From: Eledone cirrhosa
Taxonomy: Eukaryota
DNA length: 64,000 nt
Assembly (NCBI GenBank): GCA_964016885.1
Contig: OZ024741.1
Coordinates: 285,820,001-285,884,000, forward strand
Direction: 5' to 3'
The number at the start of each line of letters is the position of its first letter. The stretch's first letter is position 1. The notes under the pieces were generated by a model, which was not told the origin of the DNA, made no database searches, and worked only from the letters and a program-made list of their open reading frames with translations. Made by a program: the position numbers and the translations under genes. Positions 1,791-58,615 of this stretch are shown here, one piece after another.

Positions 1791-4647
1791 GGCTAGACAC
1801 AGTAGAAATCATTGTTACTATTGTTTATGAACCGTAGCCAATTTCATTGCCTCTGTTCTTTTCCAAAATCCATATCTCTGACTATGCTAAAAATTATAAT
1901 TAATTATTTTTGTTATTTTTATTTGCATCCCCACTAGTGTTGTATAGCGAAGATATTATATTCTTGTATTTATAACATGTTAGGATAATCGACCTATTGA
2001 ATATCGTTTACAATATAAAGATATCGAACGACATTTCAGTTTATTACATTAAATGTTTCTTTTTTCATCGCTACAAACAAAAATACAATCACGCAATCAC
2101 ACCAAACAACTACTTCATAATTTTCTTCTTTGATGTTTTCCATAAATGCGAAGCGACAGAGGAACCTATAATTGACAGGGAAAATTCTATCGGCATACTA
2201 AACTTAAGAAAACACTAGCAATGCTTATTTTATTTTGAGTATTTTAAAGAAAAGTTTCTATGAACGTTTATTCTTTTGTTTGAAAATATTTCCTACCTTC
2301 GAATTTACAATTAAATGTTCAATTGAAACGGATATGACGTAAGATATTTTAAAAGTATTTTTTAACATATTTTTTACGAGGCTCTGTTTGAATATGTGTA
2401 TATGTATTGATATATGTGTATATATGTGTATATGTATTGATGCCAGTGGGTCTATGTATGTGTATTTTGTGTATATATGTTTGTAAGCGTGTACATTTAC
2501 TCAAAATAATTATTACGTGCACCATTGTTCTTTAATCTCCCCGTTTTCTTGTTCAAATCCCCGAATTGGCTTATTAAACACAGCTTAACAATAATTATGA
2601 TAGTGCTCAATATAAGAGTAATAATATATGCGTCTATATATTTTTTCTAGCGTGAATACATATATTTACGTATATAGACTGCGAAATGATATGCGTCTAT
2701 GTAAAACAATGCTGCCGTTTAGGTTTGTGAGTGCCAAATTCAGATGACTGTATTTGTATCTAAACTGGAATTAATGACACATAGGACAATGTAGCTCCAG
2801 ATATAAAAAGATGATATAATCGGCGGTGAACAGTGCTATGAATCTGTTCAATCAATGTTGGTGTGAAGCTTGACTATACGAAAACAACCAGCTGTTAACG
2901 TGAGATATCCATAATTAACTTAATGAGATTATTGTGCTGAGTTCAAGTTCTCCTGTGTGATGTTAGTCACACTCATACCGAATCATTTTTTTAACCAATT
3001 CTCTAAATTAATCTACTGTAATGCATCGTTAATTACGAGATTGGTAATGATCAGTCAAGCAATAACCGTAAGTAGCCGTAACGATTTGCATCATAGCGTA
3101 CATGAAATTGTGTATATTCTTGACTTTTCGAAAATCGTTAGCAATTTCGGAGAAAGAATTTACGTAAATTTTACAAAAAATTAAAACAAGTATTTTTTTC
3201 CTGTCGCAGATTGGAATACTTTCTTTGGATTTAAAAAACAGATCCTAAATTTGCCGTATTGCCTGATATACGGCTGTGATAACGAAAATAAAGATATGAC
3301 AGTCTATGCATGGGCATATATGCTTTTATTATATCCATTTTCCATAGTAGAGAAGGTATTTGATTATGGGTACCGTGTCTGTGAGCTTATATTTGAGACT
3401 ATTTGTGTGAATTTAGCTATCGTAAAACGTAATCCATTCAATTAAAGCAGTATATCATCGTTGCTTGACATATCGAAGCTTAAGTTTGGCCCAGATACAT
3501 ATGCATGAAATATTTATGAAATACTTAGGATATGTAGCTTATGACATATTTATGAAATACTTAGGATATGTAGCTTCAGTCATCATGCAATATCGCGTTT
3601 TATTGTCGTATATCATACATTTACTTTTCAAGATATCTTCAATATTTTATTCAATTATGTTACTCATTGAACATTTCTGTTGGCAAATATATATTTTAAG
3701 CTAAGGTAGGAGAGAGATTTATTATTATAGAGCTAATCATGGGTAGCATAAAATCATGACGAGCACAACCCTCAATACCATTACTGTTACCATTATCATC
3801 ATTGTTGTTATCGTCATATATTGTTATCGTCATATATTGTTATCGTCATATATTCATAATTTTGAAATAATAAAGTAGATTCCTTTCGAAATATTAAAGC
3901 AGCAACCAGCTGCTTTCTGTTCTGCACTCCTATTAATGTTTTCAATTTATTGTTTATTCTGCCAGTGTATAATATCCTAGAGAAGAGAAAACACTTGGGT
4001 AAAAACTTAAAATTCCACTGCGGTTAAATCTGCATTTTATCTCCGGAGTCAATAGAAAGTTAAACATTAACATAAGTGAGATGACTCAATTGAATATAAC
4101 GCGCTTCTAAAGAAATGACGTCTTTAGCCACATTAAAAGAAAGCAATTGAATACATAATCCGTGAAATTTATAACGTAATTTCTCGGGATCCAAAACCGC
4201 ATGCTGGAATATGTAAAATGTTCTATTCAGTAAAAGCGGAGGATGTATGTTTTATAGAAACATTACCTTTGAGGATCTCAAAATATCCCTCCCAATAGTT
4301 GATGGAATGAACGTAAAGTGTGGATGAAAATATATAAAGAAAATCATGTCATTCAGTCCGCTCGCTACAACAGCCATCACAAAATCTCAGCAAGCTGGAA
4401 TAGCAAAATGGCAGATTCTTATTACAGTAAAATAAAGGGCCTCGTTATCAATATTTGTATTTTGTGTGATTTATTGAATTAATTTCCTTATTTTGGATGA
4501 TTTATTTTTATTTTTCTCGCAGTTTTTCTTTCTTGTTGGCGGAGTTGTGGGTTTACAACGAAAGTTTAGAAAAAGATTCAAAATTCTCTGGAGTTTCTAT
4601 TGATTTGTTATTGTTAAAGATACTACCTCCAACACCATCTTCATCGC

Positions 4648-33783: not shown

Positions 33784-34102
33784 GCAATTAAGTTATGATA
33801 AGTACACATAGAAGTAAAAGTACACCTAACCACAAGGGGAAGTTATTGTGCCTCTTACAGCATGATCGCTCATGAGGAAAAAAAAGGAAAAAAAGGAAGG
33901 GCAGAACAAGGAAGATCTCGAAAGTAAGTTATCGTGTTAAAAATGTGACAGGACAAGACAATGAACGAAAAAAAGGCAATTTTTCAATAGAGAAAGCTTA
34001 AGAAATTATTTGTCTTAAATAAAAGTTTCCCTCGTTGAAGGAATCGTATGAGTTTCAATTTCTCGCAGTAAATGTACTCTTAGTATACACACATACACAC
34101 CC

Positions 34103-34169
<67 letters not shown>

Positions 34170-39237: not shown

Positions 39238-39282
<45 letters not shown>

Positions 39283-39284
<2 letters not shown>

Positions 39285-39475
39285 CGAAGGAAATGTGGTA
39301 AGGAACCAGGTGGACCATAACGCACCAAAGTACTCAATACTTAGGGTAGTAGAGTGGGTAATAGGAACGAGTAGGACCCCGACGACTGAGCTCAAGCCGT
39401 TTCGACGGCTAATTCTGGATGTCCAGAATTAGCCGTCGAAACGGCTTGAGCTCAGCCGTCGGGGTTCTCCTCATT

Positions 39476-39480
<5 letters not shown>
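39283..39480. mobile_element. Short (TA)n-embedded foldback element (family B) carrying the 3' half of a hammerhead ribozyme
   Basis: An 80-bp leader plus a 120-bp near-perfect palindrome (39361-39480). The arm reads GAAA-CGGCT-tgagctc-AGCCG-TC. Second copy at 57326-57528. Confidence 0.8.
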
Positions 39481-39528
<48 letters not shown>

Positions 39529-39530
<2 letters not shown>

Positions 39531-39579
39531 TTTCCTGCTGATTTCTTTCAAATGAAACAGTTCTAGTCCTGTAGAAGCC
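39529..39579 (+). ncRNA. Type I hammerhead ribozyme motif (family A), core variant CUGCUGA
   Basis: GGTTTC-CTGCTGA-tttctttcaaat-GAAA-CAG-ttctagtc-CTG-TA-GAAGCC: stem I GGUUUC/GAAGCC, stem III CAG/CUG, GUA triplet. Confidence 0.7.
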
Positions 39580-39789
39580 ACGTCTATATTAAATTTGATG
39601 TTTACACTCTACTAATGTATATCGTTACCCCAGATTAAAGAGGGGACTCACACATACACACACATACACACACAAACACACACACACACACACACATGTA
39701 TATATATATATAAAAAATAACGATCGAATTTCGTCAAATCGGACCGCGGAAACAATGTTTCCAGGGTCTTTCCAATTGCGAATACCATC

Positions 39790-41880: not shown

Positions 41881-42465
41881 AAATAATAATAAAAATTTGA
41901 GACTGAAATTTGAAATTTACAAAGAAAAGAAATTAGTGCATACTAAGTAATTTATAGTTTTTCAGAAATATTCAGGATTATCTAAGTGTTCTCTGTATAC
42001 TAAAGATATCAATTTACATGCACTTTATGTTCATGATGCCAATAATGATTTCTCACATGTACTCCATGCCAAATAATTTAAGAAGCCTATACTCAATTTG
42101 TGGACACCAATCATTGACTAACATTGGATTTACTGACTTCAGAAGGATAAAAGATAATTGTTTCTACTTTAGGCACAAGGCCAGGAATTAAACAGTGCAT
42201 CACTGGTACTTTATTTTATCGACCCCGTAAGGATGAAAGGCAAAGTCAAAAAGATAATGAACATTGATATTGGCGGGATTTGATCTCAAATCTGAAAGGA
42301 GTCTAACCTTAAGGCGTGTTGTCTGTCATTGTCCCGAGCTTGCCAAATCATTGTTCTCTTTTATAACATGTTATATATCAGCATATTATTAGTGAGTCTT
42401 TCCTAAAGCGAAGTATATTCCTACAATTTTCAGAGGCAAGCTATCCTATCAGATGACAAATATTA

Positions 42466-43962
<1,497 letters not shown>

Positions 43963-46695
43963 CTAACAGAATAGTATTTTTAAGCAAACCTTGAAATTCT
44001 TGATATGAATTCAACCACTGAAGTCAACTCAAATACTGTCTTGAATTATAAATTTCGAACATCTACCTTAGTGGAGAAAAAGATTTTTTCTCGGATTTAA
44101 TAAGGTTTACTTTGCAGTCGGAGAAAGTTTATGAATACTAAAAAGCCGTTGGCATTTATCCAACAGGAATGAATACCTCATTTCGATTTCTTTAAAATGT
44201 CGCAACGTAAAAATTATTAGCAATTCAGTGCAATGCTCTTCTGCAATTTTCTGAACACATGACTAGAAAATGTAACTAGTTGTAACAACCCCTTGGAGAA
44301 ATCTGACCAGGGGATTATTAATTAACACATAACAACCTAACGTCTGTATCGATTACCCTGCATGTTATTTTCAAGGAGACGTCCTCTATAATTATAAATT
44401 CGATTAAACATTTCCCAGGATGTTATGTCTGAATGCGAAGTTCTATGGTAGAAAATCAGTTTTTAAATGGACTTCGAATTTCGGTTATCGTCATATTTTT
44501 AATCGTTCGTTATTAATATATATTAATTAAATCTCTGATATGTGTTAGAATGAAGAAAGTAACATAAAGGTTTCTAATTTAGGTATAAGAGTAGCAAGCG
44601 ATAGTGTAATAATGTTAGACGTTTAATTTAACAGAAGGGTTATTACATTTCTAACCACACACATTGCTTTAGTATAATCTATTGGATCTATTGGCCATAG
44701 AAAATACTTTGGAATTCTTAGATTAGTGGCATATTTAGTATCCTGTAAATGTGCCAACTGAATACATGATATTAGTATACGAGACAAGGGTGTGTTTCCT
44801 CTCACCTTTCCAATCATATATATTATTTATTCCAACGACACGAGGAATCTTAGTCGACCTATCCAGTTAAAGTAGCAATCAAATCTCCCCCAATAAACAT
44901 TCGACTCTATTTAAAATGGGATATTATTAAAATTAACATGCATTGAGATGTATCGACAAAACCAATAACTAGCTGAATACAATGAAAAAAATACATTTAC
45001 CACACAGACAGTATTTTACCATATTCCGTCTTCATGTGAGGCTACTGGTGCAAGAATGCACCAGAATAATGAGGGAATGGAAGACAACATTGAATTAGGC
45101 ATGTTTAGTTTCAGAATATAAAGGAACCTAATAGATATTGTCAGGTAATTTAGTCTAATACTACAGTTTTATCTCGAACGTTGACTCATTACTTATGTAT
45201 ATATGTAACTGTGTATGTATGTATGTATATATGTATGTATGTATGATCATGTAAATATTGATGGGTTCGTAGGGGTTCCCTTGCGATAAACCCCGTGTTT
45301 TAGGCACTTTAAACCTAGAACTCATATCTTTTCCTGGTTGAAACATAGCCGACTTTTGGATGATTATGTTTTATCGAAAAGGAAAGGATGAAAAGCAAAG
45401 TTGACACCAATGAGATTTGAACTCGGAGAGCATCAAGAACAACGAAAAACCTTCGCTCCGATAGTATAACGACTCCGCCAATTCCTTTCACCTGACTAAC
45501 TATATACAAATTTAAACTATATATTCAAGACCTAGATACAATCGAAGTTTAAATCAGCGTTCCCCTATCGCACCTTTCCCGATAAACTTACCCAAAGTCA
45601 ATTTTATTTGACTAGTGCTATAGAATGCAAAACGAAGATAATCTAGTTGAAATTTGAATTACTGACAAAAATCTAAGTATTGATGAAGAACGAACGTCTC
45701 GTTTGCCATCTTGCCAATAAAGAGAAAGTTGGCACGAATGAGATAGTTGCTAAATATTTTTGCCGATGATAATTGAAATCAAATATTGACCATAATATTA
45801 TGGTATACTTTGATAGTATTAAGAACCGAGGTTATCTATAGTTTCTCTACAAGATATAAAATATCGGTTATTTACTTAAGCATAAGTCATCAGATATATA
45901 ATGATGTCTATAATCACTCTTTACACTGACAAGAACATTTTGATTAACGATGCATTTGAAGTACATTCGATAAGAGTAGATACTGATTTCAATACAATTA
46001 GAATTTCCTCACCATATGACGTTATATAATATGCAAAGTTTCCAGGTTAAATGGGAAAAATAAATTAGTATAACTGAAGTACATACTTAATGAAATATAT
46101 ATTTGGCATTTGCTTTTGTTGGGTCTTTTTATTAGTATTTTAACATAATTCTGTTAGAGGATGAAAGGCAACTCACAGCAATTTCCACGGTCTCGGAGAC
46201 TGCTTAGTTTAATAAACGGCAATAGTATCCTAGCGAACGTACCGATCGAATGCCTGCAAATATGTACACTCTATTAACGACACTTAAAGGGGTTAAATGA
46301 GGCGAAAGATTATTTACCAAAAACGTACAAAATCTCAACGATTACCTGTAAGAATAAAAACATAAATTTTATTGATCAGAAAATGTTGCTAGCACTTTTG
46401 TTATTAATGAGTGATTCGAATGAATTCAAGATTGATTTTCACTAGTCAGTTAATATAATTGCTATTTATCATATGTTGATTTATTTCACCCATTATGCAT
46501 GGAGCCTGATGATTATTTGACCTTCAATGGCCACTCAGTTCTTCCTCTTTCACAGTTTACATATCACTGAAAGATACGTCACGTCTGCTTACATAATGAT
46601 CACTGAACACTTCTCACAGAATACCAACTACAATAAATCTTATTAACTTATTAATTTTTTTCTCTAATCAATGTTTCTTCGATTAGTGTTTTGTA

Positions 46696-54765: not shown

Positions 54766-55064
<299 letters not shown>

Positions 55065-57266: not shown

Positions 57267-57308
<42 letters not shown>

Positions 57309-57325
57309 TCTCTCTATATATATAT

Positions 57326-57528
57326 AACGAAGGAAGTGTGGTAAGGAACCAGGTGGACCATAACGCACCAGAGTACTCGATACTTTGGGTAGTAGAGTGT
57401 GTAATAGGAAAAGGGTCAGGACTCTGACGGCAGAGCTCAAGCCGTTTCGGCGGCTATTTCTGGACGGTCCAGAAATAGCCGTCGAAACGGCTTTAGCTCT
57501 GCTGTCGGGGTCCTGACCCTTTTCCTAT
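57326..57528. mobile_element. Second copy of foldback family B
   Basis: Same leader as 39283; palindrome 57404-57528; flanked by (TA)n. Confidence 0.82.
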
Positions 57529-58615
57529 ATATATATATATATATATATACTAGCATATATAAAGATATATGACCGAATATACGTGTGTGTAATCAAGTTT
57601 ATATGCATGTATAAGTCTGCGTGTCTTGCGTGTGGGCATGAATATAGGAAAGATAATTGACGCGGATATAACGCCTTTGGTAATACCCCCTTTGAATACC
57701 TGAAACCAGCAAAAAACATTAAAAGAAAACAGACACAATGTCTATATCAGCCACGCACACACACACACATACACCACTAATACCTACATATACACATACG
57801 TGCGCAAATCTTATATATATATATATATATGATGAGAGTGAATGTGCGTGTGTGTTTGTGTGCATGTATATGTGTGTTTCATTAAAACTATTACAAATCG
57901 AAGGCACAAAGTTCAGTAGATGTATTCACATATCTAGATTAATCTTTAGAATATTCATCGAATTCTTCGACAATCTCGAGAAATGTGGTATATGTATAAA
58001 ATGTAAGACGTCTTTGTCACAAGTGTTTTCCTGAAAAGTTGTATTATGTGGTTTTATTAACAAACGGACCTATTGTATATCAAAATTGATACATGACAAT
58101 TAGGTTAAATTTTCCCATCAGCACGACTTATTGGTGGACGATACATGTAATAAACTGTATTAGATCGTGAAATTACCATGCCATCAGAACTATTGTATGG
58201 AGTATGTTCTATTAGGTTTATATCAATAACGATGGCGGACGTACACGATATACGATAGAAATAAATATAAGCAGAATTTGAATTATTCAATACTGAAAAC
58301 AATAAAGAAATGCAACAAACACAATAATCATTAGATTTATCACCACGAACTCGCTCCTCGAACTCTTTCTTTTTCTTCTCTTCGTCATTATCACCAACTG
58401 CAATATGACTATCATCATCATCGTCAAAAATCATTATCATCTTCGTAAAAATGGTTTCTGATTCAGGCAAAAGGCAAACAATTTGTGGGGAAGGAAAAAG
58501 TCGATTAAATCGACCTCAGTGAATTACTGGTACTTTATATTATGGACACCGGAATGATGATGATGATGATTATGATAATGATAATAATAGAAATAAAAGT
58601 AATAATAATAATGAC

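Follow-up and report, generated by a model that had tools for sequence, protein, structure and literature searches.

Among Penelope-like elements (PLEs), the closest described relatives of the repeats considered here belong to the Hydra clade, which includes Hydra-1_Obim and Penelope-13_HM and in whose description the PLE cycle is called undefined (Craig et al. 2021, PMC8557442). In vitro, the anole Poseidon element PAc cleaves and extends both strands, with two internal start sites that bound a tail and a predicted dimer, and its protein requires the first 172 nt of its own ORF (Frangieh et al. 2024, PMC11167929). For Cercyon of Schistosoma, mention is made of pairs on opposite strands at distances of 100-700 bp, and a circular or read-through template has been proposed for PLE tandems (Cervera and de la Pena 2014, PMC4209133). 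Retrozymes are tandem units with complete ribozymes (10.64898/2026.07.22.740005). High hyper-editing in octopus and frog has been linked to abundant near-perfect dsRNA, a palindromic repeat being named for the frog only in the part of that study available to us (Porath et al. 2017, PMC5625713), and the main text of a 2026 octopus repeat annotation, as far as it was accessible, lists Penelope families with no palindromes or hairpins (PMC13282606).

The origin of the inverted and tandem structures of PLEs is open, and thousands of natural products of one apparently recently active element separate the models. Here we describe short tailed hairpins from the genome of Eledone cirrhosa, which we attribute to an active Hydra-clade Penelope-like element, as its shortest and most frequent product. 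Our main reading, to which we give a probability of roughly 0.8, is that each hairpin comprises two head-to-head copies of the front end of this parent, made by double target-primed reverse transcription on one source RNA.

Tailed hairpins in (TA)n tracts

The window analyzed here, a stretch of 64,000 nucleotides, contains two copies of the repeat (39284-39477 and 57327-57525) that are 88% identical across 188 aligned bases. Both conform to the anatomy given in an earlier note made from the sequence alone, with a length of about 200 bp, (TA)n on either side, a shared 80-bp leader and a hairpin. The hairpin comprises 55 predicted pairs in copy 1, whose outer stem is imperfect with three mismatches, and 60 in copy 2, each with an 80-nt unpaired leader. 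The Penelope-like origin proposed in that note is borne out as well: the arms are the front end of a parent PLE, copy 1 being 98.5% identical to long parent copies of one subfamily (L281, L240) and copy 2 95.7% identical to a long copy (L344) of another. The half hammerhead recognized in the arm, comprising GAAA, stem III and GUC, is found in the hairpin. A complete hammerhead core is not: its 5' box is missing, being located upstream of the fold point.

Positions within the window of the two hairpin copies, their parts and their flanking tracts
Feature	Position	Strand
Left (TA)n target tract, copy 1	39243..39283	.
Tail of copy 1, from parent unit nt 59-138, bounded by the two putative RT start sites (the 80-bp leader of the earlier note)	39284..39363	-
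Paired part of copy 1 tailed arm, from parent unit nt 3-58, holding the 3' half of the hammerhead	39364..39419	-
Copy 1 tip, single base at the head-to-head junction, unlike either parent arm	39420..39420	.
Untailed arm of copy 1, from parent unit nt 2-58, with the stem II 3' strand	39421..39477	+
GAAA in copy 1 untailed arm, followed by stem III	39438-39441	
GUC in copy 1 untailed arm	39458-39460	
Stem I 3' strand in copy 1 untailed arm	39461-39465	
Right (TA)n target tract, copy 1	39478..39528	.
Left (TA)n tract, copy 2, broken by a short CT run	57268..57326	.
Copy 2 tail, 80 nt	57327..57406	-
Paired part of copy 2 tailed arm, from parent unit nt 2, of a subfamily other than that of copy 1	57407..57465	-
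Copy 2 tip, single base unlike either parent arm	57466..57466	.
Copy 2 untailed arm	57467..57525	+
GAAA in copy 2 untailed arm	57484-57487	
GUC in copy 2 untailed arm	57504-57506	
Right (TA)n target tract, copy 2	57526..57549	.

Other repeats share the window. A 1.5-kb degenerate (TA)n-rich tract (42316-44008) dominates the output of the repeat finder, and a further hammerhead-like repeat occurs on the minus strand in two pieces, one at approximately 39530-39580, directly to the right of the TA tract of copy 1, and one at approximately 54940-54991, with CTGATGA...GAAA CAGTACT on the minus strand near 54991.

Throughout the 3.0 Gb genome, the hairpin centre (GACGGCTAWTT-N0-30-AAWTAGCCGTC) has 17,670 exact matches, and a control pattern has none. 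To describe the family we used 50 unselected hairpins, namely the first 50 centres listed on contig C1, chosen by the exact motif alone. A TA tract lies at both ends of 48 of these copies and at one end of the remaining two, in agreement with the (TA)n targeting that had been suggested. The three examples of co-varying arm letters given in the earlier note are present in the sequence, and the pattern is general: only 226 of the 17,670 centres are mixed at a diagnostic A/T site by the tip, versus the approximately 46% expected with independent arms, a figure derived from the ratio of 32 A-type to 18 T-type among the 50 unselected hairpins. At 30 mixed loci inspected by eye, the linked subfamily letters are mostly the same in both arms, so that most mixed loci are point mutations. 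One locus (L167) carries, in the long arm of its hairpin, a 3-nt tag of another subfamily and is a candidate recombinant or conversion patch.

MITEs and foldback elements possess terminal inverted repeats and a fixed interior; the hairpins possess an 80-nt tail at one end and, among the 50, 39 distinct tips, in line with the copy-specific fold point of the earlier note. Non-LTR retrozymes are built of head-to-tail units, each with a complete hammerhead, whereas the hairpins are head-to-head and hold half a ribozyme. A self-propagating family would display inherited junctions and its own promoter, whereas the 11 youngest hairpins display 11 different tips and the upstream promoter region is absent. 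The hairpins, devoid of that region, are probably dead-end products of the autonomous element, and the separate non-autonomous or retrozyme-like family previously envisaged is thus probably wrong.

A second hammerhead-bearing family, with a canonical CUGAAGA, gives the same tailed and untailed hairpins (211 exact centres), with variable tips and a common inner limit (L190:2963-3480, L079, L027, L300-L304). In four head-to-head chimeras (among L031, L040, L049, L052 and L057) an arm of the family described here is joined to an arm of the second family, each at its own inner limit, which indicates that two templates, or later recombination, occur rarely. A third family is a GIY-YIG PLE with a TATA box, CAGTT and a hammerhead; its pLTR lies downstream of the ORF in L155 (approximately 2100-2300), one palindrome (L048) is folded at its own CAGTT, and a 97-bp piece of its 3' end lies at 34071-34166 of the window.

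The parent element and its hammerhead ribozyme

The parent was found through a TATA-like box upstream of the inner end of the arm, whose recurring contexts led to long copies. Its unit measures 3,531-3,543 bp, and nine complete ORFs of 717-719 aa lie in tandem arrays; the 14 ORF starts across seven fetched loci divide into these nine, one cut by the end of a locus and four broken. L240 is a partial tandem consisting of pLTR, ORF, a long 3' region, pLTR, tail and (TA)n, and partial-tandem pLTRs, an inverted truncated copy and a one-ended tail are all present in parent insertions. The first in-frame ATG lies at unit nt 232, downstream of both sites (nt 58 and nt 138) at which arms have their outer ends.

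The encoded protein carries the YRDD of its reverse transcriptase, invariant in 77 of 77 homologs, together with motifs of the Hydra clade: RWR (RWK in 51 and RWR in 21 of the 77 homologs), DKG changed to DKT, and the cysteine motifs CNCPDRSIC (the CxCX5C linker), CNLCSEE (CxxC) and NKKDELVTACKH (CxH), with no CCHH. One cysteine lies between the GIY- and YIG-like motifs, and the C-terminal VIYQC...YIG aligns by eye with Hydra-clade proteins. An alignment-based structure model of the 717-aa protein (pLDDT 91.5) has TERT (3du5) as its best Foldseek match, at an E value of 1.4e-8; a single-sequence model (pLDDT 32) was unusable. Pfam returned no match on the ORF, endonuclease included, a PDB sequence search returned none, and a whole-protein fold search returned polymerases only. 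In a GIY-YIG family search of the genome, the loci listed among the best 30 are other PLE families, the parent not being one of them. Judged by its sequence, the parent appears to be an intact, recently active Hydra-clade Penelope-like element with a single ORF for a reverse transcriptase and a GIY-YIG-type endonuclease.

The parent pLTR carries a complete type I hammerhead with stem I ACCCC/GGGGT, core YUGANAA, stem III, GAAA and GUC (61 distinct copies). Stem II is CGGCTA/TAGCCG, or CAGCTA/TAGCTG in an older subfamily, and stem III, at 7 bp, is long and closed by a palindromic loop. In a search whose pattern fixed A at position 8, 42 of the 61 distinct copies have U3-A8 and 19 have a mismatched C3-A8, and the variable N7 is G in 40, U in 12 and A in 9. 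The minimum-energy fold of L336 yields all three hammerhead stems, and an Rfam search at gathering thresholds gave no hammerhead match in the window or the parent loci. The earlier note suggested looking for longer copies with an intact CUGANGA and a PLE ORF; longer copies with a complete hammerhead and a PLE ORF exist, with a core of YUGANAA. Since the core is YUGANAA, a search for CUGANGA upstream of the arm missed the parent: among its 46 genome matches, none of the 30 inspected is the parent. Likewise, CUGANGA is indeed absent from the hairpin, as the earlier note said, but not by removal at the fold, the parent core being situated upstream of the likely RNA start.

Loop II of the parent is 30-40 nt long and contains an AT-rich box, TATA-like in some cases, about 29 nt upstream of TTAGT or TCAGT, pentamers that we take to be Inr-like on the Inr consensus. 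Canonical TATA is confined to some subfamilies, the search that found TATA-bearing parents having itself selected for TATA; elsewhere TATTTAAA, TATTCA or TATTTATT stands there, and an older subfamily has none. In the older subfamilies (L061, L070, L206, L342-L347) loop II differs, a TATA-like box is lacking and stem II is compensated; these loci also give hairpins, ending at TAGTT.

Arm ends, tips and the route of insertion

With the A of AGT numbered nt 1 of the unit, the outer ends of the arms fall at nt 58 in 39 of 48 short ends and at nt 138 in 38 of 51 long ends, and after both sites the next letters of the unit are TAT, matching the target. The inner ends lie between about -4 and +7, none of 100 arms extending beyond 4 nt upstream of AGT; when a wider set, of 83 hairpins, was compared with four parents, the inner limit was 7 nt, which equals the length of the yardstick. 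Junctions in the 83 comprise overlaps of 1 nt (33) or 4 nt (4), abutting arms (13) and gaps of 1-19 nt (33), and some gaps contain templated pieces of the arms. One recurring tip, CAGTCCAG, occurs in 13 of the 83 hairpins, across at least five subfamily tags. Among the unselected hairpins, 11 of 50 differ from an intact unit by at most two substitutions over 182 nt, eight of them by none. All 11 near-identical copies have different tips and three duplicated copies keep one, so tips most likely arise at insertion.

The hairpin holds only the 3' half of the ribozyme because both arms end at the Inr-like site within loop II. We infer that the RNA starts at this AGT and that the parent core sits upstream of the start. 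A weak cap signature accompanies these ends, the first untemplated base being G in 5 of 7 arms that end at the A versus 12 of 59 elsewhere. Loop II is able to form a small hairpin just upstream of AGT, and RT stalling could therefore contribute to the arm stop.

Two further features lie upstream of this site. A T>G change 8 nt upstream of the start recurs in three subfamilies (e.g. L226, L232, L270, L281, L286), often in one arm only. We rejected a cap scar as its explanation, as the change perfects a quasi-palindrome and G stands at -1 in 0 of 73 read-through arms; the site looks like a template-switch hot spot. Separately, long arms in L291, L293, L327 and L329 stop at one point approximately 85 nt upstream of AGT (near position 3436 of the L240 unit), possibly a second RNA 5' end.

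The model that we favor, double priming on one source RNA, would proceed as follows. The pLTR would start a capped RNA at the AGT of loop II, leaving just the ribozyme's 3' half at the front of that RNA. The RT-endonuclease, probably a dimer as predicted for the anole element, would cut both strands of (TA)n, and priming would take place at nt 138 from one 3' end and at nt 58 from its counterpart, in both cases beside a UAU that matches the target. Both cDNAs would run off the 5' end of the RNA, as in retroviral strong-stop DNA, and host end joining would fuse them with about 0-1 nt of overlap, trimming or short inserts. Derivation of both arms from one source RNA would account for their co-variation, although one RNA and two RNAs from one locus are indistinguishable in these data, and the target match at the start sites is 3 nt long. 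Occasionally the RT, having reached the 5' end, would re-enter the RNA and generate mini-tandems, and a template with no nearby 5' end, such as a read-through or circular RNA, would give long, independently truncated arms and perfect tandem arrays; that the perfect multi-unit arms stem from a circular or long read-through template is speculative. Strong-stop DNA is a short cDNA to the RNA 5' end that can jump; it is tRNA-primed and needs RNase H. L1 twin priming employs a second primer on the same RNA and leaves an inverted, non-overlapping segment, whereas here both arms copy the same stretch.

Jumps are recorded in 5 of 30 loci with a pLTR-ORF junction (L306, L307, L311, L314, L316), in which a segment runs from AGT (or at most 12 nt away) to nt 203-959, followed by a new segment from nt 1-4. 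Read in the cDNA direction, the RT arrived at the 5' end and re-entered the RNA, which speaks for AGT as the RNA 5' end and for a template extending into the ORF. A separate jump for each arm was considered and set aside, a mix of long and start-site-ended arms being found in about 2 of 11 unpaired long arms, most of whose partners are out of view.

An extension of the double-priming model to PLEs at large is conceivable, and we hold it to be rather doubtful. Obligatory double priming from a dimer would combine with a retrovirus-like strong-stop; a promoter within the ribozyme loop would give a capped front that cannot self-cleave and so yields hairpins, and complete ribozymes downstream would release unit-length circles, rolled into long arms and perfect arrays. 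The hairpins left over, near-perfect, 55-60 bp in length, numbering tens of thousands and derived from several PLE families, might constitute a major source of dsRNA for A-to-I hyper-editing in this genome.

The main surviving alternative, unlikely in our estimation, is that short RNAs from truncated pLTR or hairpin copies are mobilized in trans, which would make the hairpins a true non-autonomous family produced by the same double priming. In favor of such a family, potential short sources far outnumber full elements (7,016 exact genome matches to the ribozyme 5' half against 396 to the pLTR-ORF junction) and the subfamilies are many. However, tips are not inherited, the hairpins lack the region upstream of the start, the jump products show a template running into the ORF, and the subfamily tags that were checked all have long parents with the same tag.

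A snap-back or self-priming route, in which one cDNA or antisense RNA folds at its end and is copied into the second arm, has been put forward for head-to-head Penelope structures (Arkhipova et al. 2013, PMC3846280) and corresponds to the fold-back copying by which the earlier note would rebuild the palindrome. Concordant arms, tips that in some cases resemble tiny fold-backs and short templated inserts at tips would all suit it, yet a second arm made in this way could contain nothing that the first lacks, and the first would have to be the tailed one. The tail is found in one arm only, and the untailed arm nevertheless reaches deeper in 21 of 48 hairpins with a long and a short end, versus 16 for the tailed arm and 11 ties. 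Long insertions, both orders of arm depth included, follow the same head-to-head plan: among the first 100 ribozyme matches, inspection by eye found at least 24 minus-then-plus pairs within 5.5 kb, and each of the 19 usable insertions among 20 fetched has one tailed and one untailed arm; L282, whose junction is not clean, is excluded from the count of long pairs. By reading, the untailed arm reaches deeper in 8 of these 19, the tailed arm in 6, and 5 are ties or complex. The extreme case is a single 16.4-kb insertion (L335+L336), in which the tailed arm measures 287 nt and its untailed partner, longer by 16 kb, comprises 4.5 units, the four full ones being 100% identical. Because either arm can hold sequence that the other does not, the arms were copied independently from the element's template; snap-back as the main route is contradicted and, in any form, improbable. 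Another long array (L337+L338; G000:C1:91,489,170 onward) displays a 4.5-unit arm whose inner end adjoins at least 33 head-to-tail 55-bp pieces of the ORF, a minisatellite that repeats unit nt 1755-1812, was born at the truncation point and extends beyond the fetched stretch.

Still less credible is a fixed palindrome, similar to a MITE or foldback DNA transposon, that is copied whole, its tips varying by cruciform breakage and repair and its arms kept alike by conversion. Perfect palindromes are unstable, a few tips do recur, and the flanking TA is reminiscent of a duplicated TA target. Against these points, the unpaired tail at one end precludes terminal inverted repeats, the sequence is that of a retroelement pLTR, and the eight zero-substitution copies have eight tips while the three duplicated copies share theirs. 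Nor is there arm conversion: in 40 copies with subfamily partners, the distance per site between arms is 0.027 within a copy and 0.028-0.030 between copies of one subfamily, which indicates that co-variation reflects the subfamily identity of the template rather than the later homogenization that had been offered as an alternative. Across all copies the arm distance is 0.113, versus 0.038 within a copy (48 copies), and in 13 of 18 pairs compared by eye, short palindromes L289, L291 and L294 (in which the comparison window crosses the junction) excluded, both arms are mutual nearest relatives. Although fold-back chimeras are a familiar long-read artefact, an assembly or read artefact has a negligible chance of explaining arms with private differences and fixed, asymmetric ends, the more so as contigs from public runs (one study of unrecorded run kind, whose sample may be that of the assembly) have loose ends at the same three positions, with joints between opposite strands at the start site.

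Comparison with described elements

Inverted truncated copies, one-sided tails, (TA)n targeting in the Hydra clade, U3-A8 ribozymes and two start sites are already in print. In the literature that we searched, no mass hairpin class ending at an RNA start in loop II, no jumps from such a site and no genomic test against self-priming came to light; Repbase and Dfam lay outside its scope and may catalogue such a repeat. Automatic pipelines would likely file the hairpins as MITEs or unknown repeats. Their value lies in revealing template jumps and in locating, to a precision of a few bases, the two start sites and the probable 5' end of the RNA; with an intact ORF and so short a template, a direct biochemical test is easy. 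If transcribed, they would be ready-made dsRNA, and could be the ADAR or Dicer substrates envisaged in the earlier note.

The parent resembles the Hydra clade, as far as its published description was accessible (PMC8557442), in its single ORF for RT and a putative C-terminal endonuclease, its (TA)n targets, its type I hammerhead, RW[K/R], DKT, CxCX5C, CxxC and CxH, and the absence of CCHH; Penelope-13_HM has an inverted 5'-truncated copy, as does the parent family. Its unit of 3.5 kb compares with a length generally under 3 kb in that clade, and its tail of 80 nt with one of 30-40, and a mass class of ~200-bp hairpins is present here. All Hydra ribozymes in File S2 of the same work have CUGANGA and short loops, whereas here the core is U3-A8 or C3-A8, loop II spans 30-40 nt and stem III is long. 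Given its different ribozyme, the parent is not of the same family as Hydra-1_Obim, and a hairpin motif is absent from the portion of the supplement consulted (PMC8557442). The ribozyme shares U3-A8, a long helix II, a short helix I and an extra nucleotide after position 9 with the minimal Cercyon hammerheads of Schistosoma (Cervera and de la Pena 2014, PMC4209133); here, in contrast, stem III is long and the putative promoter, together with the start site, is situated in loop II.

An inverted pLTR, a one-sided tail, junction palindromes and a TATA with an Inr-like motif are also found in the Penelope structures of Arkhipova et al. (2013, PMC3846280), where, in the sections consulted, a handful of copies was read as antisense self-priming; the thousands of copies here argue for two RNA-templated arms. 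Both strands are used by PAc as well, with two start sites downstream of the ribozyme and AT-rich targets. PAc belongs to another clade, and its start sites are unlike the target and lie inside the ORF, whereas here they match TAT and lie upstream of the first in-frame ATG (PMC11167929). Joined head-to-head products are not described for PAc in the available text of that study, whose extension of both strands took place in vitro only; the hairpins are a natural record of the likely insertion route (Frangieh et al. 2024, PMC11167929).
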